The notes beneath the pieces were generated by a model that saw nothing but the letters and a program-made list of their open reading frames with translations, made no database searches and was not told the origin of the DNA. Positions 1,639 to 40,400 of a stretch of 43,893 nucleotides of DNA are shown here, piece by piece. This stretch comes from a virus (lineage: Duplodnaviria; Heunggongvirae; Uroviricota; Caudoviricetes), in the IMG/VR virus record IMGVR_UViG_2645727810_000025, positions 1-43,893 of that record; one strand, 5' to 3'. The stretch's first letter is position 1; each line of letters starts with the position of its first letter. The position numbers were made by a program, and so were the translations under genes.

Positions 1639-1930
1639 ACACCACCCCGCGACATCCGATCCCTGCGTATTCACCACGGCGCAGGCCGTTACCTTTCGAT
1701 ATGCACTGATCGCGGCGTATCGCTATCCTTGCGCGTTCAACCTCACCGACTGCTGCATCCATGCACAGCAACCAAAGCCTGGCTGCAATGCGGAACTGGC
1801 CTTTCGATTCTCGCTCAACAGCGCGCTTTTCTACCTCCATCGCCGCAGGAGTTACGGCGACAACCTTTGAAGCCTGACGCTGAGACACATAGTTCAGGTG
1901 ATACTTTTCAAGACGGGTTAATTTGCTCAT
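1631..1930 (-). CDS. hypothetical protein (99 aa)
   Basis: ATG at 1930 chosen over the track's longer upstream start because it is coupled (ATGA) to the stop of an upstream small ORF. Confidence 0.5.
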   Translation of the reverse strand: MSKLTRLEKYHLNYVSQRQASKVVAVTPAAMEVEKRAVERESKGQFRIAARLWLLCMDAAVGEVERARIAIRRDQCISKGNGLRRGEYAGIGCRGVVYD

Positions 1931-2043
1931 CGGATCCAGCCTTCTATGAAAATTACCGCCAGCAGATACAGCCAGGCGGAAACAGAGGTCAGGAATAAGT
2001 ACCATCCTGACCATTTTTCCCAGTGCCTGATCAGCGCTGTCAT
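1927..2043 (-). CDS. candidate small hydrophobic membrane peptide (38 aa), below the ORF-track cutoff
   Basis: My own translation: MTALIRHWEKWSGWYLFLTSVSAWLYLLAVIFIEGWIR; ATG overlaps the AlpA-like stop (ATGA) and its TGA overlaps the next ATG (ATGA); one predicted TM helix. Confidence 0.35.
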   Translation of the reverse strand: MTALIRHWEKWSGWYLFLTSVSAWLYLLAVIFIEGWIR

Positions 2044-2288
2044 GCGGCGTTACTTACTGGGCGGTAAACGCGCTGATCAACCGGCGGCTTTTTTCCGGTG
2101 AACTCTGCGGGGCTGGTGGCCTGACGTTCATCAAGCCAGTTCTCAACCTCTTCAGCGTTCCATGCACAACGCTTATCAGTAATCCAGAATCGCTGCGGGA
2201 ACTCGCCATTGCGCTCCATGCGATCAATGGTGCTCATAGATACCGGCACCACTGCCATCAGTTCCTTTTTGCCAAATGCTCTTTTCAT
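2040..2288 (-). CDS. AlpA-family phage transcriptional regulator / excisionase-like HTH protein
   Basis: 82 aa; motif VVPVSMSTIDRMERNGEFPQRF typical of the AlpA (prophage CP4-57 regulatory) family; ATG with GAGAGG SD. Confidence 0.75.
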   Translation of the reverse strand: MKRAFGKKELMAVVPVSMSTIDRMERNGEFPQRFWITDKRCAWNAEEVENWLDERQATSPAEFTGKKPPVDQRVYRPVSNAA

Positions 2289-2334
2289 AATTACCTCTCT
2301 TGCATTTGCGACGCGCGCGGCGCCGCAGTGGTGG

Positions 2335-3216
2335 TTACATCGGTACTTCGTTCAGTTCGTCGCAGCGGATGGTGTAAACGTCAGTTGCTTTTGCCAGCAG
2401 GTCATCATCACCTGCCAGTTTCTGAGCAACGTATTTGTACGCTTTGTCCAGTTCGGCCTGAGTGTTGTAGTTCATCGCCGCTACGGAAAATGCGTGCAGA
2501 ATCTCTTCAGGGCCGCGATCATCTTTGTACTGCTGACGATCTTCCTGCTTCTGCTCAGGCTTTGAGTTGATCAGGCTGTTCATGCCCTGAGCCGTTGCCG
2601 CAGGTGGCGTGATGTCGCGCTCAACACGCGGTGTTGTCTCCTGCAGTTCGTCGGGTGTATAGACACCAAGAAGAACATCAGGGGCATGCAGGCGCGCCCA
2701 GCGCTTAACGCACAGATAAGCAAGTTGCTGACGTGGATCCTGTTCCCACAGTGGAGAGTTACGGACACCGGCCTGAGCCATGCTGATGGTAAGTTCACGC
2801 GGCTCTGCTTCGCCTTTCAGCACTGCCGATACTGTTACGGTCAGTGATGGTGACTTGTCGCTCTTGCCATTCACCTTTGACCAGTCGCCGTCCCAGCGGT
2901 AATTCAGGCGGGTTGAAAGCAGGTTTGAAGACGAAACGACGGCGTTAACAAGCTGCGCTTCATAGCCAAGAGTGCCGTTTACAACGTGCGTCTTCTGGGC
3001 CACAGCGAACGGGTTCATGCCCCACTGCGCCGCCTGCATGGTTACCGCCAGGCAGTCAGCAGGCTTTCCTGCCAGGTGCTGCGGAACGGTTGCTTTACTG
3101 TCTGCCATCAGGGTTGCGAAACGCACCAGGCGGTCCATACCCTCAGGACTGAAGATTGCCGCAGCGGTCCCTACGGTAGCGCCAGGCTGTGATGTGATTG
3201 CGATATCGTTGCTCAT
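2335..3216 (-). CDS. single-strand annealing recombinase, RecT/Red-beta (Bet) family
   Basis: 293 aa from ATG at 3216 (ATGA overlap with exonuclease stop); QWGMNPF segment resembles the lambda Bet QYGLNPW region; partner of the adjacent exonuclease. Confidence 0.65.
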   Translation of the reverse strand: MSNDIAITSQPGATVGTAAAIFSPEGMDRLVRFATLMADSKATVPQHLAGKPADCLAVTMQAAQWGMNPFAVAQKTHVVNGTLGYEAQLVNAVVSSSNLLSTRLNYRWDGDWSKVNGKSDKSPSLTVTVSAVLKGEAEPRELTISMAQAGVRNSPLWEQDPRQQLAYLCVKRWARLHAPDVLLGVYTPDELQETTPRVERDITPPAATAQGMNSLINSKPEQKQEDRQQYKDDRGPEEILHAFSVAAMNYNTQAELDKAYKYVAQKLAGDDDLLAKATDVYTIRCDELNEVPM

Positions 3217-4034
3217 ACGTACATATCCTGTTTTCTTGCCCATTCAGGGCGTTTAATAATTTCCACGCCACCCCATTCATCACTGATGCGGCACTCGTGA
3301 TAGGTGTTCAAATCCCGGCGGAATAACTGGTGCCCGGCGTCAACATCCAGCGCATCCAGTTCGAACACGCGGACCGGGTATCGACCGCAGTCGATGGTTT
3401 CGCTCACAGCCAGGAAGAAAAATCCGTGTGGCTGCCCAGTTACTTTCAGTGCGCCCTCTCTGTACATGGCGTCCTGCACGTGGTAGCGGAATTCCTCGAT
3501 GTGACGAGCAAAGCGATCCATGTCTGCAACCTTTTTCACGTCGACGATCACGTTGTGTTCATTCAGCCACTTATCAGGTCGTATTCGGCACAACTCGCCA
3601 GTCTCATCGTCATTCCAGTACATCGATGCTTCGCAGTGGCCTGGCGCTTCCAGCATCCAGCGCGCCGCCGGGTGAGCCATTGCGCTTTTGTGCATCAAAC
3701 CTAGCTTTCTCCAATCCTCATCAGGAATAGGTGTTATATCCATCCCATCTATTGATTCTTTGAATGCAGCTAATGCCACTTTTCCCTTCGTAGTTCGAAG
3801 ATCAACTTTCGGCTCTTTCACAAAACGCTTATCGAATTCATCCGGCTCAAGCAGCAGGCAGTGCAGCGCAGTACCCATGTCCAGTGCGGATTTCTTCTCT
3901 TCATCTTCCGGAGCAGCCTTCACCCATTTCAGAAGGGCAGGGTTCTTGGCCACCATATCCAGTTGTGACTTACTCACGCCGTCACCGGCGTGGTAGTCCT
4001 CGTTGCTGATGTCGTAATAGATGCCTGTATTCAT
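3213..4034 (-). CDS. phage exonuclease, PD-(D/E)XK family (RecE/exoVIII-like partner of the annealing protein)
   Basis: 273 aa; N-terminus MNTGIYYDISNEDYHAG is characteristic of phage PD-(D/E)XK recombination exonucleases; immediately upstream of the RecT/Bet-like gene. Confidence 0.65.
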   Translation of the reverse strand: MNTGIYYDISNEDYHAGDGVSKSQLDMVAKNPALLKWVKAAPEDEEKKSALDMGTALHCLLLEPDEFDKRFVKEPKVDLRTTKGKVALAAFKESIDGMDITPIPDEDWRKLGLMHKSAMAHPAARWMLEAPGHCEASMYWNDDETGELCRIRPDKWLNEHNVIVDVKKVADMDRFARHIEEFRYHVQDAMYREGALKVTGQPHGFFFLAVSETIDCGRYPVRVFELDALDVDAGHQLFRRDLNTYHECRISDEWGGVEIIKRPEWARKQDMYV

Positions 4035-4333
4035 GCCGCATTCCTTTTGCTGTCGATCTGGTCAGCAAGGTCAAGACGGGCGATGATGCCGGTCAGCTCG
4101 CGCTTAAATGTCGACACGACCTCTTCGAACTCGCAACTTTCACGCGCTGCGTCGATGATTTCTTTGCGTACCCCTGAGCGCAGCAGTGCTCGCTCGAATG
4201 ACTCTTCCATTTCGCAACCAGCAACTGCTTCGATCAGCTCAACGTGGCGGTCGTACAGTTCAGATGACAGCTGGTAGTCATTGCCGAACTGAGATGCTAT
4301 TTTTTTTAGGTTATTGAATTGCTTAATGTTCAT
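4031..4333 (-). CDS. hypothetical protein (100 aa)
   Basis: ATG (MNIKQF...) chosen inside the track ORF, whose first codon is TTG; stop overlaps the exonuclease start. Confidence 0.5.
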   Translation of the reverse strand: MNIKQFNNLKKIASQFGNDYQLSSELYDRHVELIEAVAGCEMEESFERALLRSGVRKEIIDAARESCEFEEVVSTFKRELTGIIARLDLADQIDSKRNAA

Positions 4334-4340
4334 AGTCACC

Positions 4341-5333
4341 TCAGTAGTTGATGGTCGTTGCGGGTACTTTCCCGCGAGCGATGGCGACAACACATTCCTT
4401 CGCCCAGTCATCAGGAATACCCTGGTCAATTAGCGCTTGAACCGCAGAAGCATTAATGGCACGACGGTGCTCTACATCAGCAGCGCGTGCTGCCGCTTCG
4501 TCAGCGATGCGTTTCTCTTCTGCCAGGCGTGCTGCTTCTTTCGCTTCGGCCTCGCGCTTAATTCGATCTGCTTCTTCCTGTGATTTGCGCTTCTCGGCTT
4601 CGATAGCTTCCTGCTTTTCACGCTCGGCACGATCAGCGGCTTCCTTCTTCTCTGCTTCAGCTTTTTGCTCTGTGGCAATGCGGTCACGCTCTGCTTGCTC
4701 TGCCTTGAGCTTTAATTCAGCCTCACGACGGGCAGATTCAGCGCGTTCACGCTCTATTTTCTCTTCAGCTTCACGCCTGGCCTTTTCTTCCGCCTGGCGC
4801 TTCAACTCTTCTTCATGAGCAATGCGCTGGCGCTCTGCTTCTTCTGCTTTCGCCTTCGCTTCTCGGTCGAATGCGTCGTTCATCAGCAGGGCCATCTCGT
4901 GATCCGCTTCGAACTTGGCAGCCCGCTCCTGATCGAACTTGATATTCATCTCCAGTGCTTCGGCGTGCAGCACATTCATGGCTTCTTCAGCCTTGATGCG
5001 TTCCTGCTCGGCCTCCCATTCGGTAAGTGGGCGGCGAACCTCATCGCGCATCTCATCGCAAGCTGATACAAATCGACGCAGTTCAGCCTCAGCAGGTTTG
5101 ACGGCTTCTTTCAGATGACGAAGGTAATCTCGACCAGGCTTTTCAACTGCTGTTTTACTGCGAGAAACCTGTGCTGCCAGAGATGCAATGCGGGCACGAC
5201 CTTTGGCAGTGCTCAGGTCAGGAACTTCGTTAACGCTTTCGCGGATCTGTTCGAGGAACTTTTCCAGACCGTTTTCTACGTAAATGCTTGGCGCCATATC
5301 TGGCGCAATTTCGATAATTGCTAATTCGCTCAC
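4341..5333 (-). CDS. charged coiled-coil protein with E/K/R/A-rich repeat core (330 aa)
   Basis: GTG start with GGGGG SD-like; about 150-aa low-complexity stretch (AEEAERQRIAHEEELKRQAEEKARREAEEK...) flanked by non-repetitive ends. Confidence 0.6.
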   Translation of the reverse strand: MSELAIIEIAPDMAPSIYVENGLEKFLEQIRESVNEVPDLSTAKGRARIASLAAQVSRSKTAVEKPGRDYLRHLKEAVKPAEAELRRFVSACDEMRDEVRRPLTEWEAEQERIKAEEAMNVLHAEALEMNIKFDQERAAKFEADHEMALLMNDAFDREAKAKAEEAERQRIAHEEELKRQAEEKARREAEEKIERERAESARREAELKLKAEQAERDRIATEQKAEAEKKEAADRAEREKQEAIEAEKRKSQEEADRIKREAEAKEAARLAEEKRIADEAAARAADVEHRRAINASAVQALIDQGIPDDWAKECVVAIARGKVPATTINY

Positions 5334-5479
5334 TTGCTAACCCCCATATCCATTTCCGTTTTTACCGCCAGCTTGCTGACGAATACCCAGTTCATGCCTT
5401 CACCCAGCGTGCGAAACTTCCAGCTCATCAGCCCGCAAGCTGTAACGCAGTACCAACCATTGATGACTTTCCACTGCAT
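5330..5479 (-). CDS. hypothetical small protein (49 aa), first gene of the leftward operon
   Basis: ATG at 5479 with GAGAGG SD just downstream of an operator-like site; the track's TTG start at 5611 would place two operator palindromes inside the coding region. Confidence 0.3.
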   Translation of the reverse strand: MQWKVINGWYCVTACGLMSWKFRTLGEGMNWVFVSKLAVKTEMDMGVSK

Positions 5480-5492
5480 ATGAACCTCTCTA

Positions 5493-5507
5493 TTACCATT
5501 TTGGTAA
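5493..5507. promoter_or_regulatory. operator-like palindrome TTACCATTTTGGTAA (OL-like site 1)
   Basis: Perfect 5+5 inverted repeat with 5-nt spacer, 14 nt upstream of the leftward operon start. Confidence 0.6.
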
Positions 5508-5568
5508 TACTTGAAGATGCAGGAAAGCCACGAAGTGGTGGTTTCTGCCTGAGCGACGCGCTCCTGTA

Positions 5569-5583
5569 TTACCTTTTGGGTAA
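5569..5583. promoter_or_regulatory. operator-like palindrome TTACCTTTTGGGTAA (OL-like site 2)
   Basis: Same TTACC-N5-GGTAA pattern, followed by TAATC. Confidence 0.55.
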
Positions 5584-5630
5584 TAATCAGATCAAAAAGT
5601 GATTGTGTCAATAGGTATGACGAGAAAAAA

Positions 5631-5645
5631 TTACCATTTTGGTAA
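5631..5645. promoter_or_regulatory. operator-like palindrome TTACCATTTTGGTAA (OL-like site 3)
   Basis: Same pattern; lies between the leftward operon and the 3' end of the repressor gene. Confidence 0.55.
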
Positions 5646-5703
5646 TTGCGTGAGGCGCGAGCTTACCGCCATCGGGCAGGTAAAGCGTCAGAATGGCGGG
5701 GGA

Positions 5704-6300
5704 TTACTTGCTTTTGTTCTGCTCAAACACGAAGTTGATGAATGAGGTGATCTTGTTCTTCTCTTCCTGTGGCAGAGCTGCATACATCCGGTGGTCGTAG
5801 TCGATAACACCAGGAGCGCCGACGGGAATAATCATCTCGTATGCTTCATGCCCGAACGCGCGCGCCAGGGAGGAAAGAACACCGATGGTCGTGCTGACTT
5901 CCGCTTTCATAATCCGGTTAACTGTGGCCGGGCCAATACCAGCTGCAACAGCAACTTTCTTTTCGGATGTCATTTCCGTGTTCTTTCTCATCCAGGCATT
6001 GAGCGTGGCTGCGGCCTGCTTCTCTACAGTCCATTCGCCATCTTCAGTGGCCGGAATAAAGATATCAGCCTGTACTGCGTCCAGTTCGTGATCGACATCA
6101 AGCCAGAACTTTTCTTTGCGCGCCGCTTCTTCAATGATACGCGCGGCATTCGGCCCGATGTTTTTGATGCCAGTGCACCACCGGTTGACCAGGTTCTGCG
6201 AACGCTTCACCCGCTCTGCAAAGCGCAACTGGGTGTCATCGAAATCCCGGCGAATGATTTCGTTAAGGTTTTTGCGTCTTATGTCATAAATACTTTTCAT
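5704..6300 (-). CDS. CI-like phage repressor with two Xre-type helix-turn-helix domains
   Basis: 198 aa; N-terminal HTH (TQLRFAERVKRSQNLVNRW...ARKEKFWLD) and a second HTH-like segment (AVAAGIGPATVNRIMKAEV); no S24 peptidase domain; divergent from the Cro-like gene with palindromic sites on both sides; no SD before the ATG. Confidence 0.7.
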   Translation of the reverse strand: MKSIYDIRRKNLNEIIRRDFDDTQLRFAERVKRSQNLVNRWCTGIKNIGPNAARIIEEAARKEKFWLDVDHELDAVQADIFIPATEDGEWTVEKQAAATLNAWMRKNTEMTSEKKVAVAAGIGPATVNRIMKAEVSTTIGVLSSLARAFGHEAYEMIIPVGAPGVIDYDHRMYAALPQEEKNKITSFINFVFEQNKSK

Positions 6301-6354
6301 AGCTATTGTATTTGTCCATTTAATGTTACCTAACTGACTAAATTTAAATGAATA

Positions 6355-6386
6355 TTACCATAAAGGTAAAGTTACCATAACGGTAA
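6355..6386. promoter_or_regulatory. two adjacent operator-like palindromes (TTACCATAAAGGTAA and TTACCATAACGGTAA), OR-like
   Basis: Tandem TTACC-N5-GGTAA sites with 17-bp centre spacing between the divergent repressor and Cro-like genes; second site followed by TAATCAT. Confidence 0.6.
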
Positions 6387-6401
6387 TAATCATTGATTTT
6401 T

Positions 6402-6416
6402 TCACCAGAAAGGTAA
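6402..6416. promoter_or_regulatory. degenerate operator-like site TCACCAGAAAGGTAA (OR-like site 3)
   Basis: One mismatch in the left half; followed by TAATTCA; 40 bp upstream of the Cro-like ATG. Confidence 0.4.
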
Positions 6417-6455
6417 TAATTCAGATATGAATAGACAGGCTGAGATAAGCAAAAT

Positions 6456-6689
6456 ATGAGTGACGAAAAAAAATTTGATTTCAAAAAGCACTGGCTGGAG
6501 CTGTCTCCTGTTGAGCGTGAAGCATTTGCAGATGAAGCCGGAACCACCAGTCATTACATCCAGACGCACCTGACCGGGCGCCGCAAGATGCCAGGTAAGC
6601 GACTGATGGACGGACTGTTTAAAGCATGTCGTTCCCGCGAATGGACAAAGTCAAAACCTGAATTAGTGCTCTTCTTCTACGACCGATAA
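6456..6689 (+). CDS. Cro/YdaS-like small DNA-binding protein
   Basis: 77 aa; position divergent from the repressor; segment TSHYIQTHLTGRRKMP resembles YdaS/Cro-type HTH proteins. Confidence 0.55.
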   Translation: MSDEKKFDFKKHWLELSPVEREAFADEAGTTSHYIQTHLTGRRKMPGKRLMDGLFKACRSREWTKSKPELVLFFYDR

Positions 6690-6837
6690 CTCTCCCTGAA
6701 CCCATCAATGCCGTCATCCCCTGGCGGCTCCTTCCTGCATAAAACACCTTTCTGGTAATAAAAAACCATATACGGTTGATCTTTTTTCGCCTTAGTGCAA
6801 AATTACCGATATCCATAACAAAAAGGAGGCACCTCCT

Positions 6838-7032
6838 GTGAAGATTGTCACCAGAATGGAGGCAGCAAAAGCTGGCCTTAATCGTTTTTATACCGGTAAA
6901 GAATGCCGAAATGGTCACCGTGCTGAGCGCTACGTTCTGAACGGAACGTGTGTTGAGTGCGCAATGAATAGTGCTCATCGTCACCGTGATGAGTTCGCTG
7001 CTGCGTTGAGGAACGCGCGGGAGGCAACATGA
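6838..7032 (+). CDS. hypothetical small Cys/His-rich protein (64 aa)
   Basis: GTG start 8 nt after a strong SD (AAAGGAGG); C-x5-H...C-x2-C pattern suggests metal binding; stop overlaps next ATG. Confidence 0.5.
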
Positions 7033-7703
7033 ATATCTATCAACGCATCAACGGATCTGACTGGCGCAATATTTGGGTGGTTGGCGATCTGCATGGTTGT
7101 TACACAAACCTGATGGGAAAGCTGGATGACCTTAAGTTCGACCCGGCACAAGACCTGCTTATCTCCGTGGGTGATCTTATCGACCGAGGAACTGAAAACG
7201 TTGAATGCCTGGAGCTTATTACTATGCCATGGTTCCGATCTGTACGTGGCAACCATGAACAGATGATGATTGATGGCCTGTCAGAGCATGGAAACGTCAA
7301 TCACTGGCTGGTAAATGGTGGTGGATGGTTCTTTTATCTCGACTACGAAAAAGAAGTGTTGGCTAAGGCGCTGGTTCACAAAGCTGCTGAGTTACCGCTA
7401 ATCATCGAACTGGTGACCAGCGACCGTAAAGTTGTCATCTGCCACGCTGACTACCCGCACAACGAATATGAGTTCGACAAGCCAGTGCCAGAGGAAATGG
7501 TCATCTGGAACAGAGAACGGATAGCCAATGCGCAAGACGGATATCATCACGAAATCATCGGCGCAGACCTTTTCATCTTTGGTCACACGCCTGCACGTCA
7601 GCCACTGAAATACTCCAACCAGATGTACATCGACACCGGCGCTGTGTTCTGTGGAAACCTGACATTATTACAGTTACAAGGCGAGGTGAATAATGGCCGG
7701 TGA
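7029..7703 (+). CDS. serine/threonine protein phosphatase (lambda PPase / calcineurin-like metallophosphatase)
   Basis: 224 aa with GDLHGC, GDLIDRG and GNHE metallophosphatase motifs; ATG with GGGAGG SD. Confidence 0.85.
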
Positions 7704-8508
7704 CTGGATCAAGATGCGTGCCGACCTGCACACGCACCCTAAAGTTGTCCGCATGGCGTCCGCATTGAAAGCGGACAGATTGCGGATAGTTGGCGGACTA
7801 CATTCCGCATGGTGTCTTTTCGATGTCCACTCTGTTGACGGTTTTCTTGACGGATACAGTGCGGAGACTCTCGACGACCTGATCGGCTTCCCCGGATTCG
7901 CGCGTGCAATGATGGCTGTCGGATGGCTGGAAGAAGAAGGCGAAAGCCTAGTAATGCCGCGCTTTGAAGCCCATAACGGGCAGTCTGCCAAGCGTCGAGC
8001 ACAGGACGCAGACAGGAAGAGAAATGTCCGCAAAGCGTCCGCATCAGAAGCGGACAAAAAGCGGACCAGAGAAGAGAAGAGAAGAGAAGATCTAAAAGAT
8101 AAAACCCCACACATAGGCGAAGCGAAAAATCAGCCTGTGGATAACTCCGGAGGTGGCAAACCAGATCCCCATGCAACAAATTCCGTGATTGATGGATATG
8201 TCCCACCAGGAGGTTCCGGTTCACTGGGTAAATTCACTATGCCGGATAGCTGGACGCCGGATCCTGATTTCACCAAACGAGCTGCGCTATGGGGAGTAAA
8301 CCTTAAAACCGATGTGACGCCATTTGAACTGGCAGATTTCATCACGTACTGGAAAGCCGAGGGCAAAGCATTCCATCACGACCAGTGGCAGCAGAAACTG
8401 GCGCGCAGTGTTCAACTGTCCAGGACAAAGCCAGCGAGAACGCAGCAGAGGGACGTTAACGCAGTACCAGAACCAGACAGCGAGATCCCTCCAGGCTTTC
8501 GCGGTTAA
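7693..8508 (+). CDS. replication protein with DnaT-like C-terminal domain
   Basis: 271 aa; C-terminus ([13 protein letters not shown]...[24 protein letters not shown]...[12 protein letters not shown]) closely parallels the C-terminus of E. coli primosomal protein DnaT as I recall it; ATG with GAGGTG SD. Confidence 0.6.
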
Positions 8509-8548
8509 CACCGGGAGCGCAGTAGCGCATTTTTTTACATCTAATGAA

Positions 8549-8563
8549 TTACCAAAAAGGTAA
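8549..8563. promoter_or_regulatory. operator-like palindrome TTACCAAAAAGGTAA
   Basis: TTACC-N5-GGTAA followed by TAAAAT, 67 bp upstream of the resolvase gene. Confidence 0.5.
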
Positions 8564-8610
8564 TAAAATATGCGCATTACTATTGAAATTAACTCATTTG
8601 TGGTTTTAAA

Positions 8611-8627
8611 TTACCTGGGGGGGGTAA
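8611..8627. promoter_or_regulatory. variant palindrome TTACC-N7-GGTAA (TTACCTGGGGGGGGTAA)
   Basis: Same half-sites with a 7-nt G-rich spacer immediately before the ATG at 8631; the G-run may double as the SD. Confidence 0.3.
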
Positions 8628-8630
8628 ATC

Positions 8631-9095
8631 ATGGCGGCAGTATTAGGGATTGACCCAGGATGCAGAGGATCTCTGGTCCTGATAACTGAGCAGGGCGGAT
8701 ACATCGACCATCTGGCAATGCCGACCATCAAGGTTGGGACCAAGTCCAGAGTCAACGGCGCAGCGGTGGCGGCATGGATAAGGCAGTACGGAATAACTCA
8801 TGCGTATCTGGAGCAGGTGGGCGCAATGCCAGGACAGGGAACGGCGAGCATGTTCACGTTCGGGCATGCAGCTGGCGTGGTGGAGGGGATACTCCAGGGG
8901 CTGAACATCCCATACACGCTGGTAACTCCGCAGTCCTGGAAGAAGTCAGCCGGTCTCATCGGAAGTGACAAGGACGCAGCGCGCAGCAGGGCGATTCAGC
9001 TCTACCCGGAACTCAGGGCGCTGGATGCAAAAGCGAAAGGTCAGGCCATCGCAGATGCGCTGTTAATCGCAAGGTTCGGGATCGGTATCAAATAA
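8631..9095 (+). CDS. RuvC-like Holliday junction resolvase
   Basis: 154 aa; N-terminal GIDPGCRGS motif analogous to the RuvC GIDPG active-site segment. Confidence 0.65.
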   Translation: MAAVLGIDPGCRGSLVLITEQGGYIDHLAMPTIKVGTKSRVNGAAVAAWIRQYGITHAYLEQVGAMPGQGTASMFTFGHAAGVVEGILQGLNIPYTLVTPQSWKKSAGLIGSDKDAARSRAIQLYPELRALDAKAKGQAIADALLIARFGIGIK

Positions 9096-12705: not shown

Positions 12706-12738
12706 TTACCAAAACGGTAATTATTACTTCGGTGGTAA
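12706..12738. promoter_or_regulatory. operator-like palindrome TTACCAAAACGGTAA plus degenerate second site TTACTTCGGTGGTAA
   Basis: First site followed by TTATTAC; second site ends 3 nt before the terS ATG. Confidence 0.5.
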
Positions 12739-13334: not shown

Positions 13335-14812
13335 CAACCGCAGCCATGTCGCCGGAAGAACAGCTCGTCGAGGATATCGCCTCGTTCACGTATGACCCGC
13401 TGGGCTATTCGCTGTATGCGTTTCCGTGGGGCGAAGAGGGAACAGAGCTGGCGCATGCCACCGGCCCACGCAAATGGCAGGCCGATGCATTCCGCGAGAT
13501 ACGCGATCACCTTCAGAATCCTGCCACTCGTCACCAGCCGCTGATGCTGGCCCGCGCATCCGGCCACGGTATCGGCAAATCCGCGTTCATCTCAATGCTG
13601 ATTAACTGGGGCATGTCCACCTGTGAAGACTGCAAGGTGGTGGTGACCGCCAACACAGACAACCAGCTGCGCACCAAAACATGGCCTGAAATCATCAAAT
13701 GGTCGAACCTGGCTATCACGAAAGAGTGGTTCACCTGCACCGCCACCGCGATGTACAGCAACGATCCCGGTCATGACAAACGCTGGCGCGCTGATGCTAT
13801 CCCATGGTCTGAGCACAACACTGAGGCGTTCGCCGGGCTGCACAACGAGCGTAAGCGCATCATAGTTGTATTCGATGAAGCGTCCAACATTGCCGATCTG
13901 GTGTGGGAAGTTGCCGAGGGTGCGCTGACGGACGAAGACACTGAAATCATCTGGGTGGCGTTCGGGAACCCGACGCGTAACACCGGGCGTTTCCGTGAAT
14001 GCTTCCGTAAATACAAACACCGCTGGAAGTGCGCGCAGATTGATTCACGTACCGTGGAAGGCACCAACAAGGAGCAACTGCAAAAATGGGTGGACGACTA
14101 CGGCGAGGACAGCGATTTCGTCAAAGTACGTGTGCGCGGGATCTTCCCTGACGCTTCTGAAAACCAGTTCATTCCATCAGGCCTGACGCAACCAGCTGTT
14201 GGCAGGGTTATTACTCCGGCACAGGTCCAGCACGCTGCTGTAGTTCTTGGCGTCGACCCGTCTCACCAGGGTAAAGACCCGGCGGTTATCTACCTGCGGC
14301 AAGGCCTGCACTGCAAAAAACTCGGGGAGTGGCAGCGTACCACTGACGATGTGCTGTTTGCGAAAGTGATTGCCGACTTCGAGGACCAGTACCAGGCTGA
14401 CGCTGTGTTTATCGATTACGGCTATGGCACAGGTCTTAAATCTGTTGGCGATAACTGGGGGCGCAACTGGACGCTGATAATGTTCGGCAGCGGTACGGCA
14501 GATCCCGAGATGGGCAACAAACGCGGCGAGATGTATAAATCCGCCCGTGACGCGCTGAAGCTTGGTGCGCAACTGGATAGCCAGGAACTTGCCGACGAAC
14601 TGAGCGCACCTGAATACAAAGTCAGGCTGAAGGACAGTAGGAAGATTTTGCAGGACAAGGACGAGGTGAAAGAATTGCTTGGCCGTTCACCGAACAACGC
14701 CGACGCCTATGTTCTGACCTACGCAGCACCGGTTACAAAAAAACAGTTTAACTATGGGCAGCAGCAAAGCCAGCAGGGTAAGGCACTCACAGAGTACGAT
14801 CCCTATGCATGA
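13331..14812 (+). CDS. terminase large subunit
   Basis: 493 aa; Walker A-like GHGIGKS; size and position between small terminase and the structural genes. Confidence 0.85.
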   Translation: MTTAAMSPEEQLVEDIASFTYDPLGYSLYAFPWGEEGTELAHATGPRKWQADAFREIRDHLQNPATRHQPLMLARASGHGIGKSAFISMLINWGMSTCEDCKVVVTANTDNQLRTKTWPEIIKWSNLAITKEWFTCTATAMYSNDPGHDKRWRADAIPWSEHNTEAFAGLHNERKRIIVVFDEASNIADLVWEVAEGALTDEDTEIIWVAFGNPTRNTGRFRECFRKYKHRWKCAQIDSRTVEGTNKEQLQKWVDDYGEDSDFVKVRVRGIFPDASENQFIPSGLTQPAVGRVITPAQVQHAAVVLGVDPSHQGKDPAVIYLRQGLHCKKLGEWQRTTDDVLFAKVIADFEDQYQADAVFIDYGYGTGLKSVGDNWGRNWTLIMFGSGTADPEMGNKRGEMYKSARDALKLGAQLDSQELADELSAPEYKVRLKDSRKILQDKDEVKELLGRSPNNADAYVLTYAAPVTKKQFNYGQQQSQQGKALTEYDPYA

Positions 14813-14815
14813 AAA

Positions 14816-14840
14816 AGCCCGCGCATCGGCGGGCTTTGTG
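14816..14840. terminator. bidirectional intrinsic terminator
   Basis: GCCCGC-gcatcg-GCGGGC hairpin flanked by A5 upstream and TTTGTG downstream; sits between convergent terL and the leftward 14999 gene. Confidence 0.65.
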
Positions 14841-14990
14841 TAGTGCGCGGTAGATGGTGCTGATATCCATCTGTGGCAGGTTGACAACAGCCACCTTCTT
14901 TCCCCGTCTCGTCAGCATATCGAGAATGTACCGCGCAATTCAGCATAAAAATGCTGAGTTAATAAGTCAATGCCGATTTGCGGGCTGATT

Positions 14991-15002
14991 GTGACATGTC
15001 AC
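14991..15002. repeat. 12-bp perfect palindrome GTGACATGTCAC (copy 2)
   Basis: Contains the TGA stop (reverse strand) of the 14999-15274 gene. Confidence 0.7.
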
Positions 15003-15274
15003 GGCTTAAAAACCGGCGGCACAGATGCCGTTCTTTGGATAGTTTTAATTATCTCACTTTCGTAATGATCTGCTCTTTTTTTCTGAATACTCATGTACTG
15101 AACGATGGCCTGTTGTTCAGTAATCGCACCATTCCTGAGTGCTGCAATAACCATCCTCGCATAAGTATCATGGGCAATTAAAGACTCAAGGTACTCAATA
15201 GCTGATGATTCTTTGGCCTGAATTTCCTGCTCGATAGCCATGAAGGATGGTGCTGGAGATGCAGTTGATACCAT
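14999..15274 (-). CDS. hypothetical helical protein (91 aa)
   Basis: ATG at 15274 with AAGGTG SD (the track's first codon at 15283 is GTG); no family recognised. Confidence 0.5.
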   Translation of the reverse strand: MVSTASPAPSFMAIEQEIQAKESSAIEYLESLIAHDTYARMVIAALRNGAITEQQAIVQYMSIQKKRADHYESEIIKTIQRTASVPPVFKP

Positions 15275-15286
15275 GATTATCACCTT

Positions 15287-15310
15287 AAAAAAATGCCCAC
15301 CGAAGTGGGC
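15287..15310 (-). terminator. intrinsic terminator (minus strand)
   Basis: GCCCAC-ttcg-GTGGGC hairpin followed by a T7 run on the minus strand, downstream of the 15395-15640 gene. Confidence 0.6.
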
Positions 15311-15387
15311 GAACTGGAAGCAAGGGTGCCTTCCATGGCAGTTACGGGTTTACAGCGCAACGTCATCGCAATGGCGTTCTGGTGTAA

Positions 15388-15409
15388 AGCCGCATTAGGC
15401 GGCTTTTTT
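15388..15409 (+). terminator. intrinsic terminator (plus strand)
   Basis: AGCCGC-loop-GCGGCT hairpin followed by TTTTTTG; overlaps the 3' end of the leftward 15395 gene (face-to-face with the minus-strand terminator). Confidence 0.5.
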
Positions 15410-15640
15410 GACTGGCGTTAACCATGCTTTGTTGAATTCCCGCATGGCTTCTTCTGGGGTGCTACCTACGCCGACAACTCCGGTTGGCAGGTCGCCATAT
15501 ATCGCAAGCCATTTATCTCCATCCTGACTAAGTGTCGGTCTGTACAAAACACTCGGTTCACGCATGCATTCAGAAGTAATCTGAAAGTCAGAGGCAACGT
15601 TGAAGAACACGTTTTGGAAATATCCGAGGTCAATATTCAT
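15395..15640 (-). CDS. hypothetical small protein with HicB-like (UPF0150-type) motif
   Basis: 81 aa, ATG with GGAG SD; segment DGDKWLAIYGDLPTGVVGVGSTPEEAMREFNKAW matches the HicB N-terminal pattern (DGGY..S.PDLPGC...G.T.EEA); no DNA-binding domain attached. Confidence 0.45.
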   Translation of the reverse strand: MNIDLGYFQNVFFNVASDFQITSECMREPSVLYRPTLSQDGDKWLAIYGDLPTGVVGVGSTPEEAMREFNKAWLTPVKKAA

Positions 15641-16534
15641 ACTTTTCTCCGGTAAAAAGGGCGGTGGTCAGAAAGGGAATAACTGCCACCGCCAAACTTG
15701 CACTGGAACTACGGGTATCACGGTCCTGAGGCGTGATTGGGTTGTGGTACGCAGTCTATTCGGCATAGCAACTCTGCGCAGATGCTTCTAACAATCACCG
15801 GTGGTAACCGGTTTAATGCCTTATTCACCACAACGGAAAGAGCACTGAAGCGATTACGATTTCAAGGTCGTAATGCTGGCATTGTCGCAATGCTCTTGCC
15901 TGTTGTGTGCTGACCTTACAGCCAGCATGGCTGGAATGAAGCCGCATAACGACTTTTCACCAACTAGGCAGGATCACCCTGAAAGAGCTGCCTCTTGATT
16001 CTTTCAGGCTCCCAATCTTTCCTGGTAGTCAATGCCTTCAGTTGGGCATGCAACCTTCGGTTATCGATCCGTCGTCATCGCCACTGTCCAGGACATTTAA
16101 AAGGACCGTCTCCAAGTGGTAACTCTTCCAGTCCCGCTAAGCACCCGGTGAGATGCTTAACGTGAATGGCTGACATCCTCGTCTCTTCCGAGGTGTCACA
16201 CCGTATCGCCACGATGGTGAGTCGTCTGTCCGTGCTTACCTAACACTGGCTTGCACATTCCGGCTACCCGGCTGGGGAAGTAGCATCAAGGGAACCCATC
16301 CGGACCGCTGCGGCACATGTGCCATATGCCGTACTGCTACACACCTGAAAGCGCACTCCACACCAGGCTCAAAGGTCATTCACTGAAGCGCGCTTTTAGT
16401 TGTGTGCGGAGATGATGCTCCGCTTATCCACCGCCTTTACTTTTAAGCCCAATTTATTGCTGCGGTACTCCGGGCTACTGCACAAGCGGTTACATAACCA
16501 CCTCCGCAATTCGTCAATTCAATACATGAATCAA
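15641..16534. other. about 0.9-kb ORF-free, hairpin-dense region (candidate structured ncRNA or decayed gene)
   Basis: No ORF of 60 aa or more in any frame except one 63-aa track ORF (15600-15791, +) at the left edge, although GC looks like coding DNA; many local stem-loops (GGCGGTGG...CCACCGCC near 15661; CCTGAAAG...CTTTCAGG near 15975; GCGGAG-atgatg-CTCCGC near 16408; palindrome GGCACATGTGCC near 16312). Confidence 0.3.
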
Positions 16535-16549
16535 TTACCTAAAAGGTAA
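16535..16549. promoter_or_regulatory. operator-like palindrome TTACCTAAAAGGTAA
   Basis: TTACC-N5-GGTAA followed by TATCT; a GGTAATAAT half-site follows at about 16607; 90 bp upstream of the 16640 gene and the portal operon. Confidence 0.5.
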
Positions 16550-16639
16550 TATCTGATGTTATAAGTGTCAATAGCCTACGCTAAATAAATCATATGTGGT
16601 TAAATTGGTAATAATTTAATTGCGTACGGAGCTATTGCT

Positions 16640-16846
16640 ATGTGTATCGGCAGCAAGCCATCAGTGCCAGCAGCACCAGAAGTACAGGCCGCGCCACAGG
16701 AGCAGGATGCAGCAGTTGTCAGTTCTCGTGATGACGAAGAGCGCCGCCGCCGTGCAGCTGCTGGTCGCAGTTCTACTCTGCTGACTGGTGCGCAGGGCGA
16801 CACCTCAACCGCAAACACCAGCGGTAAAACGCTGCTCGGTCAGTAA
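16640..16846 (+). CDS. hypothetical small protein (68 aa), Ala/Ser/Thr-rich
   Basis: ATG 12 nt after GGAG; directly upstream of the portal gene. Confidence 0.5.
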   Translation: MCIGSKPSVPAAPEVQAAPQEQDAAVVSSRDDEERRRRAAAGRSSTLLTGAQGDTSTANTSGKTLLGQ

Positions 16847-16860
16847 CGGAGTAGGCAGAG

Positions 16861-18531
16861 ATGGCGGAAACCGAAAAAGAGCGTCTGCTGAAGCAGCTAG
16901 CACAGCTGAAGAGTGAGCGCACATCGTTCGAATCGCACTGGCGTGACCTGAGCGATTTTATCAATCCGCGCGGTTCCCGCTTTCTGACGTCTGATGTAAA
17001 CCGTGATGATCGTCGTAACACCAAGATTGTTGATCCTACCGGCTCAATGGCTCAGCGCATTCTGTCCAGCGGCATGATGTCCGGCATCACGAGCCCGGCA
17101 CGTCCATGGTTCAAACTGGCAACGCCTGACCCTGACATGATGGATTACGGCCCGGTGAAAGTCTGGCTTGAAGTCGTGCAGCGCCGCATGAACGAAGTGT
17201 TCAACAAGTCTAACCTGTATCAGTCACTGCCTGTCATGTACGCCAGCCTGGGTACTTTCGGCACCGCCGCTATGGCTGTGCTGGAAGATGACCAGGACGT
17301 TATCCGCACAATGCCTTTCCCGATTGGCAGCTACTACCTGGCTAACAGCCCGCGCGGCAGCGTCGACACTTCATTCCGTCAGTTCTCCATGACTGTTCGT
17401 CAACTGGTGCAGGAATTCGGTCTGGATAACGTCAGCTCATCGGTGCAGGGGATGTGGCAAAACGGCACGTATGAAACGTGGATCGAGGTTAACCACTGCA
17501 TTACGCCAAACGTTAACCGCGACACAGGGAAGATGGACAGCAAGAACAAGCCGTTCCGCTCCGTGTACTTCGAGAGTGGCGGCGACTCCGACAAGCTGCT
17601 GCGTGAATCCGGATTCGATGAATTCCCGATCCTTGCTCCGCGCTGGGAAGTTAACGGCGAAGACGTTTACGCATCATCCTGCCCCGGCATGCTGGCACTC
17701 GGTCAGGTTAAAGCCCTTCAGGTTGAGCAGAAGCGTAAGGCTCAGCTCATAGATAAGGCCACTAACCCGCCGATGGTTGCACCGACGTCACTTAAAACGC
17801 AGCGTGTTTCCCTGCTTCCTGGTGATGTGACGTACCTCGACGTGTTGAGCGGTCAGGACGGTTTCAAACCTGCATACCTGGTAAACCCGAATACTGCAGA
17901 TCTGCTGGCTGATATTCAGGATACCCGCCAGACCATCAACAGCGCCTACTTTGTCGACCTCTTCATGATGCTGCAAAACATCAATACCCGCTCTATGCCG
18001 GTGGAAGCGGTGATCGAGATGAAGGAAGAGAAACTGCTGATGCTTGGCCCGGTGCTGGAGCGCCTGAACGACGAAGCGCTTAACCCGCTTATTGACCGCG
18101 TGTTCTCCATTATGGCGCGCAAAAATATGCTTCCGCCACCGCCTGACGTTATGCAGGGTATGCCGCTGCGTATCGAATACATCTCCGTTATGGCGCAGGC
18201 TCAGAAATCTATCGGACTCACCAGCCTTTCGCAGACCGTTGGCTTCATTGGCCAACTCGCACAGTTCAAACCTGAAGCACTCGACAAGCTCGATGTGGAT
18301 GAGGCTATCGACGCGTTCTCCGAAATGTCCGGCGTATCGCCAACCGTCATCATTCCGCAGGAGCAGGTTCAGGGCATTCGTGAAGAGCGCGCCAAACAGG
18401 CACAAGCCGCACAGGCAATGGCAATGGGGCAGGCCGTAGCGCAGGGAGCCAAGACTCTCAGCGAGACGCAAACCACTGACCCGAGCGCATTAACCGCTAT
18501 CGCTAATGCAGCAGGAGCACCGCAGCAATGA
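16861..18531 (+). CDS. portal protein
   Basis: 556 aa; first large gene after the terminase region, followed by scaffold and capsid; N-terminal pattern resembles podovirus portal proteins. Confidence 0.75.
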   Translation: MAETEKERLLKQLAQLKSERTSFESHWRDLSDFINPRGSRFLTSDVNRDDRRNTKIVDPTGSMAQRILSSGMMSGITSPARPWFKLATPDPDMMDYGPVKVWLEVVQRRMNEVFNKSNLYQSLPVMYASLGTFGTAAMAVLEDDQDVIRTMPFPIGSYYLANSPRGSVDTSFRQFSMTVRQLVQEFGLDNVSSSVQGMWQNGTYETWIEVNHCITPNVNRDTGKMDSKNKPFRSVYFESGGDSDKLLRESGFDEFPILAPRWEVNGEDVYASSCPGMLALGQVKALQVEQKRKAQLIDKATNPPMVAPTSLKTQRVSLLPGDVTYLDVLSGQDGFKPAYLVNPNTADLLADIQDTRQTINSAYFVDLFMMLQNINTRSMPVEAVIEMKEEKLLMLGPVLERLNDEALNPLIDRVFSIMARKNMLPPPPDVMQGMPLRIEYISVMAQAQKSIGLTSLSQTVGFIGQLAQFKPEALDKLDVDEAIDAFSEMSGVSPTVIIPQEQVQGIREERAKQAQAAQAMAMGQAVAQGAKTLSETQTTDPSALTAIANAAGAPQQ

Positions 18532-20921: not shown

Positions 20922-21362
20922 ATGATCCTCGACAAACTGTTGATGTTCTCCGAGAAGCAGGCGGTTACAGCTTCTGCTGCTTCTACGGATGTGATTGACC
21001 TTGGACCTATCGACGGCACCCGCCGCGATATCGGTGTGGGTTATCCGCTGGAGTTCTGGGCAACCGTTGACACCACTGCGACCGCTGCCGGTGCTGCGAC
21101 TCTTAACGTTCAACTACAGACCAGCCAGGACAACTCCACCTGGACCACTATCTACGATAGCGGTGCTTTGGCACTTGCTGCGTTGACTGCTGGCAAGCGC
21201 CTGTTCTCTGCGAAGGTTCCTGCTGGTGTTCAGCGTTATCTGCGCGTGAACTACACGGTAGGTACTGGCCCACTGACGGCTGGCGCGTTCACCTCGGGAA
21301 TTAACCTGGATGTTGATAACAACAGCCCGTACTACCCGATTCGTTCAAAAGTGACTGGCTAA
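20922..21362 (+). CDS. hypothetical virion protein (146 aa)
   Basis: ATG after GGAGAAAG; Ala/Thr/Gly-rich; between capsid and tubular-like genes. Confidence 0.55.
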   Translation: MILDKLLMFSEKQAVTASAASTDVIDLGPIDGTRRDIGVGYPLEFWATVDTTATAAGAATLNVQLQTSQDNSTWTTIYDSGALALAALTAGKRLFSAKVPAGVQRYLRVNYTVGTGPLTAGAFTSGINLDVDNNSPYYPIRSKVTG

Positions 21363-21372
21363 GGGGATATCG

Positions 21373-21717
21373 ATGTCAGGTGAAAAAGCAAGATACCGAG
21401 TCCTGCGTTTATCACACATTCATAACAACCTATGGCCTGAAGGCTCTGAAGTTGAGTATGACGGTGAGCCGGGCACGGCGCTGGAGCCGCTGAACGATGC
21501 TGCACGTGCAGCAAAGGCTAAAGCAAAGCACAAAGGCGAACCAACGGTTGTCGTTGCTGAGCATGAGCCGCTGAACGATGCGGATAGCGCTGATGATGGT
21601 CTGGATAAACTCCGCGAAGAGTATGAGTTCCTCTTCAACGAGAAACCGCATCACAACGCCAAAGCCGAAACGCTCCGCGAGAAGATCGCAGATAAGCGTA
21701 AAGAACTGGGCGTCTAA
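21373..21717 (+). CDS. hypothetical protein (114 aa)
   Basis: ATG after AAGGGG; followed by an intrinsic terminator. Confidence 0.55.
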   Translation: MSGEKARYRVLRLSHIHNNLWPEGSEVEYDGEPGTALEPLNDAARAAKAKAKHKGEPTVVVAEHEPLNDADSADDGLDKLREEYEFLFNEKPHHNAKAETLREKIADKRKELGV

Positions 21718-21734: not shown

Positions 21735-21756
21735 GGGGGCTTCGGCCCCCTTCTTG
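21735..21756 (+). terminator. rho-independent terminator
   Basis: GGGGGC-ttcg-GCCCCC hairpin followed by TTCTTG. Confidence 0.6.
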
Positions 21757-21768
21757 CAGGAGTCCGTT

Positions 21769-22092
21769 ATGGATCTGGTAAACCTCAAAACCGGCACCGA
21801 CACATATCAGGATGAGGATGGTAAAACCCAGACTCGTGATGATTATCCGTGGGGCCTTTGCATTGAGTTGAACAACGAGACGCTCGCCAAGCTCAAGGCA
21901 ACGCCTCAATCCGCTGGCACTGAAGTAATGATCACCGCAAAGGCAACTATTCGCTCAACGTCTACCCGCGAAACGGAAGATGGAATGCAGCATAACGCCA
22001 GTCTGCAGATCACTGATATGGCACTCAGCCCCGTATCCGGGGAGCAACCGAAGACAGCAGCGCAAACTCTTTACGGTGGGGAGGATGATTAA
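21769..22092 (+). CDS. hypothetical protein (107 aa)
   Basis: ATG at 21769 six nt after AGGAG (the track start at 21754 is TTG). Confidence 0.5.
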   Translation: MDLVNLKTGTDTYQDEDGKTQTRDDYPWGLCIELNNETLAKLKATPQSAGTEVMITAKATIRSTSTRETEDGMQHNASLQITDMALSPVSGEQPKTAAQTLYGGEDD

Positions 22093-34685: not shown

Positions 34686-34843
34686 AGTGATCACCTTTTA
34701 GTCTGGTTAATCACCACCGGAGGTTCCAATCTCGGAGGTGGTGAACTGTGCAGGGTTGGAACTACCGGCTAAAAGGACCCGGCGCACCTTTCGGTGCCCC
34801 CACACAGCCCACCATAATGCGAATGTGGCCGTGCTTAACGCAT

Positions 34844-34945
34844 AAAAAAACCGCTTGCGCGGTGAATGCGCCTTTTAGTATCCGGGGTTCCAATCCCGGC
34901 ACTGGATTTTGCCAGTGCCTGATCACTATGGCACAAGTATTTTGC
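34844..34945 (-). ncRNA. candidate small regulatory RNA upstream of the antirepressor gene (C4-antisense-like architecture)
   Basis: Minus-strand order: palindromic promoter-like site (34955-34969), then 8-bp stem-loop GGCACUGG/CCAGUGCC, 5-bp stem-loop with loop AUUGGAAC, then CCGC-GCAA-GCGG hairpin plus U7; the loop motif GAUUGGAAC recurs in a hairpin at 34715-34745 in the antirepressor 5' UTR. Confidence 0.3.
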
Positions 34946-39969: not shown

Positions 39970-39982
39970 CATGGCATTTTTC

Positions 39983-40376: not shown

Positions 40377-40400
40377 TTTGATAAAGGAAAACAATAAAAC

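Follow-up and report, generated by a model that had tools for sequence, protein, structure and literature searches.

A DnaT-like protein as the probable origin-specific initiator of an epsilon15-type phage, with a candidate replication origin inside its own gene

The early region of the caudoviricete genome held in IMG/VR record IMGVR_UViG_2645727810_000025 (43,893 bp, analysed over its whole length and called the window below) raises the question of how the replication of such a phage is started. It encodes a RecT-type annealing protein, an exonuclease, a RuvC-like resolvase and a 271-amino-acid (aa) protein whose C-terminus resembles the host primosomal protein DnaT, and the original prediction, made from the letters of the sequence, held that neither an initiator nor a helicase-loader gene is visible and that replication may be primed at D-loops rather than at a specific origin. 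The analysis described here points elsewhere. With a probability of roughly 70%, the 'DnaT-like' protein is the origin-specific initiator of the phage, and a candidate origin lies within its own gene, as ori lambda lies in gene O. Because such an initiator and intragenic origin are most likely present, replication by recombination alone is probably not what occurs; the phage does appear to depend on the helicase-loading machinery of its host. The coordinates of all features are collected in Table 1.

The 271-aa protein matches the PHROGs family phrog_2509, 'replication initiation protein', over its full length (residues 1-271 aligned with positions 1-277 of a 277-position profile), and its orthologues in the epsilon15 group, whose genes share 93-94% nucleotide identity with it, are annotated as replication or primosomal proteins. 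Its layout comprises an N-terminal winged-helix domain, a charged linker, a DnaT-type C-domain that binds single-stranded DNA (ssDNA) and a DnaT-type tail. The structure model of the N-domain is a single winged helix with a predicted local distance difference test (pLDDT) score of 86.9, whereas initiators of the RepA/RepE type have the WH1-WH2 arrangement. Foldseek matches to the model are generic winged helices, and a Rep-DNA complex (5kbj) appears only at rank 50, with an expect value (E) of 0.46. Residues 1-177 have no Pfam match at E<=0.01, Phage_rep_O (PF04492) included, and NCBIfam gives no family for the N-domain; the precomputed Pfam field is empty ('-') for 120 of 120 N-domain homologues among the matches listed, and the solved structures matched by sequence correspond to the DnaT part, none to the N-domain. 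Profile searches of the early proteins, which the original prediction had proposed as a check, return an initiator match from phrog_2509 and no loader domain, with Pfam and NCBIfam blank on the N-domain.

The N-domain family is large, with 6,981 cluster representatives at E<=1e-3 (~7,000 clusters at 50% identity), and the domain is nearly always N-terminal in proteins of 200-350 aa. In cultured phages, its homologues (35-65% identity) are encoded directly 5' of a helicase loader or helicase gene. The next gene is DnaC-like for phiPSA1 gp34 (N-domain 65% identical), DnaB-like for Raharianne gp06 (48%), lambda-P-like in TL-2011b and ZX5 (36%), and ydaV, encoding a DnaC-like protein, for the 262-aa 'YdaU' of the Rac-like phage MN652886 (35%); Heva and Carin1 carry a DnaC-like gene at this place, and PAN70 carries genes for DnaC and DnaB. 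At 80 IMG/VR loci with N-domain identities of 63-100%, the gene that follows encodes a P-like, a DnaC-like or a DnaB-like protein, or such a gene is missing. On the evidence of the PHROGs match and of the company kept by its homologues, the N-terminal half can be classed as an O-like initiator domain within a large family of phage initiators.

The gene also contains the top direct-repeat family of the whole window, an array of the GTCCGCA type. Of the 17 GTCCGC/GCGGAC hexamers in the 43.9 kb, eight fall within the 816 bp of the gene (Poisson p ~2e-9). The repeats are arranged in two putative iteron clusters, helically phased and lying 279 bp apart, and in cluster II two GTCCGCA copies on the + strand precede two GCGGAC copies, which represent the same repeat on the - strand. 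Both clusters, together with the purine tract that follows them, are found in 80 of 80 related loci, whichever gene comes next. In a test on 48 loci de-duplicated at 95%, fourfold-degenerate third positions were conserved at 0.92 in the first three repeats (the iteron codons) versus 0.52 elsewhere in the domain (Mann-Whitney p = 1.9e-4), which argues for selection acting on the DNA and not on the protein alone. It was also observed that positions 7746-7786 and 8025-8065 are exactly 93 codons apart in the same frame, so that the DNA repeat gives rise to a 14-aa peptide echo, present once in a helix of the folded domain and once in the linker.

Across subfamilies, the place of the repeats just 5' of the purine tract is constant and their sequence varies with the N-domain. 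At least six repeat types take part in this covariation. GTCCGC(A) is shared by the window group, phiPSA1 and Carin1, and GTAACGC by MN652886, TL-2011b, ZX5, MW202710, CP2 and PAN70; Raharianne has GTAGAC, Vibrio phage 1.211.A has TGTCAC, Heva has GTGACGTAAC, and locus L150, with a different N-domain, has TACCGTA. A change of repeat with N-domain subfamily is the pattern that would be expected of iterons and their cognate initiator.

The purine tract lies directly 3' of cluster II. It has a period of 5 with 4.6 copies at 100% match (Tandem Repeats Finder), the lowest GC fraction of the gene (0.42-0.44) and an AT skew of 0.72-0.86. The tract occupies the same place in every subfamily examined, with a variable copy number and a weak form in Carin1, and the order of iterons, purine tract and A/T patch is kept in nearly every one of these subfamilies, while the sequence 3' of the gene varies. 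A separate observation concerns the window and epsilon15 (locus L001), which are near-identical through the N-domain, the iteron clusters and the purine tract and diverge abruptly at the A/T patch (window ~8090-8110, L001 ~8990-9010). This abrupt divergence, with C-domains only 48% identical beyond it, implies a mosaic recombination junction at the putative origin. The converse is seen in L017 and Klebsiella phage ST11-OXA245phi3.2, where a near-identical C-domain is joined to other N-domain and iteron types.

Residues 178-271 align end to end with residues 85/86-179 of DnaT at 63-64% identity, and solved structures of the DnaT C-domain are matched at E values from 1e-24 to 5e-36 (6aep, E 5e-36; 9zbt_D, E 1.5e-34; also 2ru8 and 4ou6). 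On sequence grounds the 271-aa protein is not a DnaT orthologue, because it scores 149.8 bits against the NCBIfam equivalog NF002770, below the 201-bit cut-off and with residues 178-271 aligned to profile positions 86-179 only, and because two parts of DnaT with described roles (PMC13377028), its acidic PriB-binding linker (Asp66, Asp70) and its N-terminal domain for oligomerisation, are absent, the alignments beginning at DnaT residue 85.

The C-terminal tail is distributed according to the neighbouring gene. In the N-domain set of loci, the form IP[PDE]GF[RT]G ends none of the 37 proteins whose neighbour is P-like or DnaB-like, 3 of 9 with a DnaC-like neighbour and 17-20 of 40 without an identified loader, the upper figure counting variant tails. 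An independent scan of viral contigs for '...IPPGFRG-stop' yielded 80 loci with at least eight N-terminal architectures, of which 34 are followed by a DnaC-like gene and none by a P-like or DnaB-like one. At least three P-partnered proteins (those of TL-2011b, L030 and L041) end instead in 'LDxNNTDWI', which was confirmed as the C-terminus of lambda-type O proteins abutting P. The initiator thus appears to be modular, with a C-terminus that seems to track the type of partner. DnaT-type domains as such are also found alongside phage P-like or DnaC-like loaders.

In the window no such partner was detected. About 60 open reading frames (ORFs), comprising the early, the unexplained and most structural ones, were scanned against Pfam and/or PHROGs, ten of them against NCBIfam and six against PADLOC; those outside the scans include 20922-21362, 21373-21717, 21754-22092, 38713-39018 and 39011-39490. 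None of the scanned ORFs matched a family of helicases, helicase loaders, primases, DnaA or RepA proteins, and PADLOC gave no match for the unexplained ORFs. Nor was a phage loader or helicase gene (P, DnaC-like or DnaB-like) found beside the initiator gene of the window, a position where many relatives have one. Much of the original prediction accordingly holds: Pfam and PHROGs bear out the identities and places of RecT, the exonuclease, the DnaT-like protein and the RuvC-like resolvase, residues 178-271 resemble DnaT as closely as had been claimed, and a dependence on host primosome or helicase-loading proteins agrees with the lack of a detectable phage helicase or loader. The claim that neither initiator nor loader is visible survives for the loader and fails for the initiator, given the O-like N-terminal half of the 7693-8508 product.

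The strict consensus DnaA box of the gene is the only one in the window, where 0.33 would be expected by chance. It is situated ~45 bp past the purine and A/T tract, next to cluster II and not in the intergenic region. In the 86-locus N-domain set, strict DnaA boxes occur at 25 loader-less loci, to which L150 is to be added, and at none of the 46 loci with a phage loader or helicase. Expressed by C-domain, 23 of the 26 loader-less loci with a DnaT domain have the box, as do L015, L082 and L150. The box is kept amid at least five variants of the flanks and C-domain, as well as in L082 (69% N-domain identity) and L150. Each of the 28 recognisable solo loci of the set has at least one of the two elements, DnaA box and tail: both occur in the window, epsilon15 has the box only, and the L017 type the tail only, as does L087 outside the set. 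Fourteen relatives with 'no identified partner' were considered as further loader-less cases and rejected, Pfam showing DnaB-like (L062, L073), P-like (L074) and DUF6475 (L064) matches; as the class is not cleanly solo, it was left out of the correlations.

Locus L150 (positions 1889-3299 of an IMG/VR prophage) merits separate description. It has a third kind of N-domain, beginning MARIRTIKPEFWTDEDL, followed by TACCGTA repeats, a purine tract, a DnaA box at gene position 444, a DnaT domain and an IPPGFRG tail, and the next gene is RuvC-like. The occurrence of this series with another N-domain implies that the 'right half' of the module travels as a unit.

In the mechanism that we propose, the N-domains would bind the repeats and build an O-some-like complex, and the purine and A/T tract would open, aided by rightward early transcription across the gene. 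The DnaT-type C-domain would bind the exposed single strand and probably form filaments on it, as host DnaT marks a helicase-loading site. Host DnaB-DnaC, required because no phage loader was found, would be delivered either through host DnaA bound at the neighbouring box or through the DnaT-type C-terminus with its IPPGFRG tail, or along both routes. RecT, Exo and RuvC would constitute a general recombination module, which may drive a later, recombination-dependent and concatemer-forming (theta-to-sigma) phase.

The possible role of the tail extends to the host. Preprimosome structures show the DnaT C-domain forming filaments on lagging-strand ssDNA, where it marks the loading site and docks on PriA, and the authors of that 2026 paper leave the recruitment of DnaB-DnaC as a step that 'remains unknown' (PMC13377028). 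A tentative idea, which we consider somewhat doubtful, is that the short C-terminal peptide common to host DnaT and a large number of unrelated phage initiators (...[DE]xxIP[PDE]GF[RT]G) is a portable motif recruiting the DnaC-type loader in the form of the DnaB-DnaC complex. If so, the phage proteins would be origin-targeted DnaT mimics, in which the winged helix brings the DnaT ssDNA-filament domain and the tail to the origin; loader-less phages would load host DnaB-DnaC directly, with the DnaA box as a backup; and the same tail would be the means by which DnaT hands DnaB-DnaC to restart sites. The comparison offers a testable hypothesis on how DnaT is connected to DnaB-DnaC.

Several observations weigh against an initiator acting at an intragenic origin in this manner. 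The literature yielded no experiments on origin activity, iteron binding or DnaA binding for any member of the family. Cluster I lies in conserved coding sequence, and its conservation is therefore partly due to the protein. The AT-richness of the purine tract is only moderate, and the intergenic stretch 8525-8600 has a far lower GC fraction (0.24-0.28). Three solo loci (the L017 type) are without the DnaA box and epsilon15 is without the tail, so that neither element is obligatory. The correlations of box and tail with the loader rest on related sequences, in which independent events are few, perhaps 3-6, and nominal Fisher p-values overstate independence for the same reason. Finally, the DnaT N-domain has been proposed as the recruiter of DnaB-DnaC (PMC13377028); the phage protein is without that domain, and a binding of DnaC by the tail would compete with the published suggestion.

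Alternative explanations differ in how much of the above they retain. The same initiator and origin could operate with the helicase being loaded through the host PriA-PriB-DnaT primosome, if the DnaT-type C-domain docked on PriA or formed joint filaments with host DnaT and the opened origin were treated as an abandoned fork or D-loop. Cryo-electron microscopy is consistent with such a route in that the DnaT C-domain docks on the HD2 and C-terminal domains of PriA via a conserved hydrophobic interface and self-associates on ssDNA (PMC13377028), and the domain of the window protein shares 63% identity with residues 86-179 of E. coli DnaT, tail included. However, the protein has neither the acidic PriB-binding linker nor the N-domain of DnaT, apo PriA conceals its DnaT-binding site until it binds a fork (PMC13377028), the conserved DnaA box of loader-less relatives points to DnaA and not to PriA, and DnaT-type domains accompany phage P-like and DnaC-like loaders as well; we thus regard loading through PriA as unlikely. 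A different alternative retains the protein and its binding sites and would assign the repeats to autoregulation or to copy or incompatibility control, the true origin lying elsewhere, for example in the AT-rich intergenic region 8509-8630. Iteron-type initiators commonly autoregulate via inverted repeats, and the low GC fraction noted above for 8525-8600 is far below that of the purine tract. That region, however, carries a repressor-operator-like TTACCAAAAAGGTAA and a promoter-like site, and a repressor site is annotated there in epsilon15, which suggests a promoter and not an origin. Moreover, it is the layout of iterons, purine tract and A/T patch that is retained in nearly all subfamilies, in contrast to the variable sequence 3' of the gene, and the DnaA box adjoins cluster II rather than the intergenic region. 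An origin outside the gene therefore seems quite improbable.

The least probable explanation, to which we give very little credence, is that of the original prediction, in which there is no origin-specific start, RecT/Exo intermediates prime replication, RuvC resolves them and the DnaT-like protein serves as a primosome factor at D-loops. The RecT, Exo and RuvC-like genes are indeed present, no helicase or loader gene was found, and the DnaT-type domain is real. In addition, SPP1, lambda and similar phages use recombination functions in late, concatemer-forming replication. Against this stand the N-terminal half of the protein, an initiator domain with a covarying iteron array that occurs in classic initiator-loader modules of relatives, and the prominence of that array among the direct repeats of the genome. 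Furthermore, RecT-Exo modules coexist with O/P-type modules in TL-2011b and ZX5, so that the presence of RecT-Exo is no sign of a missing origin. The phrog_2509 match, the loader-adjacent homologues and the iteron-type array with its DnaA box thus speak against D-loop-primed replication without an initiator, and the outcome that the prediction had itself named as its refutation, an initiator with an iteron origin in the N-terminal half of 7693-8508, is the one that the computational evidence favours.

The origin-specific initiator favoured here can be compared with known systems, among them lambda O and ori lambda, which work with the helicase loader P. In both proteins a flexible linker joins an N-terminal DNA-binding domain to a C-terminal part that recruits a partner; in both genes the interdomain region holds the origin repeats, next to which comes an A/T-rich tract showing a purine strand bias, and both lie in a rightward transcribed early operon. 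Relatives of the window protein precede lambda-P-like genes, some with the lambda-O-type LDxNNTDWI tail. Unlike lambda O, the window protein lacks a Phage_rep_O match at the threshold given above; its repeats are short 7-mers with 11-bp phasing and mixed orientation in two clusters, in contrast to the four 19-bp iterons of lambda; and it combines a DnaT-type ssDNA-binding C-part and a DnaA box with the lack of a detectable P gene. Epsilon15 gp42 and the proteins of other members of the genus Uetakevirus (SPN1S, PAT1, 65FD, ZX5, TL-2011b) are orthologous to the window protein and bear the database names 'replication initiation protein', 'primosomal protein I' and 'DNA replication protein'. At the DNA level the epsilon15 gene hardly differs from that of the window in the N-domain, in the two iteron clusters or in the DnaA box, whereas the window C-domain is longer, far more host-like and ends in the IPPGFRG tail that the 48% identical epsilon15 C-domain lacks. 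With DnaT of E. coli and Salmonella, the window protein shares the C-terminal 94 residues, a three-helix ssDNA-binding domain and the end ...PDSxIPPGFRG; unlike DnaT, it has a predicted sequence-specific winged-helix domain in place of the N-terminal oligomerisation domain and acidic linker, and its target would therefore be an origin and not a PriA-bound fork.

In iteron plasmid origins that use host DnaA, such as F ori2, P1 oriR, pSC101 and RK2 oriV, initiator repeats are combined with a tract for unwinding and a DnaA box, and the replicon relies on host DnaB-DnaC with no helicase or loader of its own. The candidate origin of the window likewise unites repeats, a candidate unwinding tract and a DnaA box, again without a helicase or loader among the scanned ORFs. 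It differs in that the initiator does not appear to be of the WH1-WH2 RepA/RepE type, the origin lies in coding sequence and ssDNA would be bound by a DnaT-type domain. In the 'loop-back' model of Rep action, one protein contains parts that bind double-stranded iteron DNA and ssDNA (reviewed in PMC10797057), an arrangement paralleled by the pairing of N-domain and C-domain in the window protein. The 262-aa YdaU of MN652886, besides its related N-domain, has the same IPPGFRG tail and a purine tract after the repeats, which take the form of three GTAACGC palindromes spaced ~200 bp apart in and just before the gene; unlike the window, MN652886 has the DnaC-like loader YdaV next, a middle domain that is not DnaT-type and no DnaA box. 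The name YdaU is used for two proteins, this one, starting MASNWIKLEV, and a 285-aa protein starting MAALPYMQLYIADYL, which we take to be the YdaU of the E. coli K-12 Rac prophage. Both end in IPPGFRG and have a DnaC-like gene next; the 285-aa protein gave no match to the N-domain references at E<=1e-4 but has the tail in common.

A lambda-O-type module of initiator and origin, orthologous to an epsilon15 gp42 already named a replication/initiation protein, is not new. No paper was found that connects phages of the epsilon15 type with DnaT, with iterons or with an origin, and the stretch of the epsilon15 record retrieved carries no annotation of an origin, iterons or a DnaA box. Also not encountered in these sources were the layout of the origin, an origin-binding domain fused to a DnaT C-terminus of the host-like kind, the pairing of a loader-less state with a DnaA box (resembling plasmid origins such as F, P1 and pSC101) and the loader-specific tails. 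The proposal would place the origin of the epsilon15 group within the gene of a large initiator family that has no Pfam model and that databases list under the wrong names, 'pyocin large subunit', 'primosomal protein I' or 'DnaT-like'; 'Pyocin large subunit' is the label in many NCBI records. It would also provide a modular rule, by which the N-domain varies with the iteron sequence and the tail with the type of helicase loader, and from which the host dependence of a phage might be predicted.

Table 1 Features of the early region of the window
Feature	Position	Strand	Evidence or description
RecT-family single-strand annealing protein	2335-3243	-	PF03837 E 1.8e-31; phrog_561 E 3.5e-137
PD-(D/E)XK exonuclease, ExoVIII/RecE-like, RecT partner	3213-4034	-	DUF3799 PF12684 E 1.5e-20; phrog_412 'exonuclease VIII' E 2.8e-114
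CI-type repressor	5704-6300	-	HTH_3 E 1.6e-8; position same as epsilon15 repressor
NinI-like Ser/Thr phosphatase	7029-7703	+	PF00149 E 3.7e-15; phrog_246 E 2.3e-111
Probable replication initiator gene, 271 aa	7693-8508	+	phrog_2509 E 1.6e-106
Predicted N-terminal origin-binding (winged-helix) domain, aa 1-105	7693-8007	+	Structure model; no Pfam family
Putative iteron cluster I	7746-7810		Six TCCGC-core repeats, 11-12 bp spacing, orientation + + - - - +
Putative iteron cluster II	8025-8067		GTCCGCA-n4-GTCCGCA-n6-GCGGAC-n5-GCGGAC, 11-13 bp spacing, linker-coding region
Purine tract AG(AGAAG)4A, then A/T patch TCTAAAAGATAAAAC	8068-8105	+	Candidate unwinding/ssDNA-binding element
Consensus DnaA box	8136-8144	-	TTATCCACA (TGTGGATAA on + strand)
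DnaT-type C-domain (aa 178-250) and tail	8224-8508	+	PF17948 E 7.5e-18, 64.5 bits against a 25-bit cut-off
RuvC-like Holliday-junction resolvase	8631-9095	+	PF02075 E 8e-7, full length; phrog_1770 E 1.2e-43

The early region as a whole is 93-94% identical in nucleotide sequence to that of the epsilon15-group Salmonella phages 65FD, PAT1, epsilon15 and SPN1S, and its gene order is that of the annotated epsilon15 record. Lysis genes, attP-like repeats, the integrase gene and the leftward early operon are contiguous, and the window therefore looks like a complete phage genome in its excised form, opened in the left operon. The repressor gene stands between the leftward and rightward early operons, the phosphatase gene is directly 5' of the initiator gene with an 11-nt overlap, and the RuvC-like gene is the next one after it.

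TTACC-N5-GGTAA operator repeats form triplets flanking the repressor gene (5492-5646 and 6355-6416). Single operator-like copies of this palindrome were also seen at 8549-8563, in the gap between the initiator and ruvC genes, and at 12708-12721, just within the start of the small terminase ORF, and epsilon15 has a repressor site annotated at the equivalent place after its initiator gene; this suggests repressor control past the two early promoters. Scans for promoters and terminators gave no excess over the shuffled expectation. A switch in the sign of GC skew near 7 kb was considered as a sign of an origin and dropped, as it falls where the two early operons diverge.

Between the large terminase and portal genes, ~2 kb (14812-16861) contain no ORF of at least 100 aa and have a lowered GC fraction. 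Relatives match this stretch only partially, with small hypothetical genes and one tRNA-Arg annotated, and it has neither an Rfam match nor iteron-like repeats. It was rejected as a second origin on account of the missing repeats and its variability among relatives, and is probably a variable moron region.

Elsewhere in the window, Rfam identifies a C4 antisense RNA (77 bits) and an isrK Hfq-binding small RNA (76 bits) at 34734-34819(-) and 34844-34918(-), just upstream of the Bro-N/Ant anti-repressor gene ant, 33996-34694(-). The arrangement looks like P1/P7 immI-type antisense control of an anti-repressor, here in a podovirus genome. Two ORFs between the integrase gene and the left operon, 41715-42344(+) (209 aa) and 42922-43893(-) (323 aa), lie in DNA of low GC fraction (0.40-0.44) and have no Pfam, PHROG or PADLOC match. 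The 209-aa product shows apparent hydrophobic stretches near its C-terminus, as read by eye from the sequence, and both may be cargo, serotype-conversion or defence genes. Finally, ATGGnATTTTTnAT occurs three times at 39971-40382, in the attP-like region just 5' of the integrase gene (40401-41591), and the copies are probably arm-type sites of the integrase.

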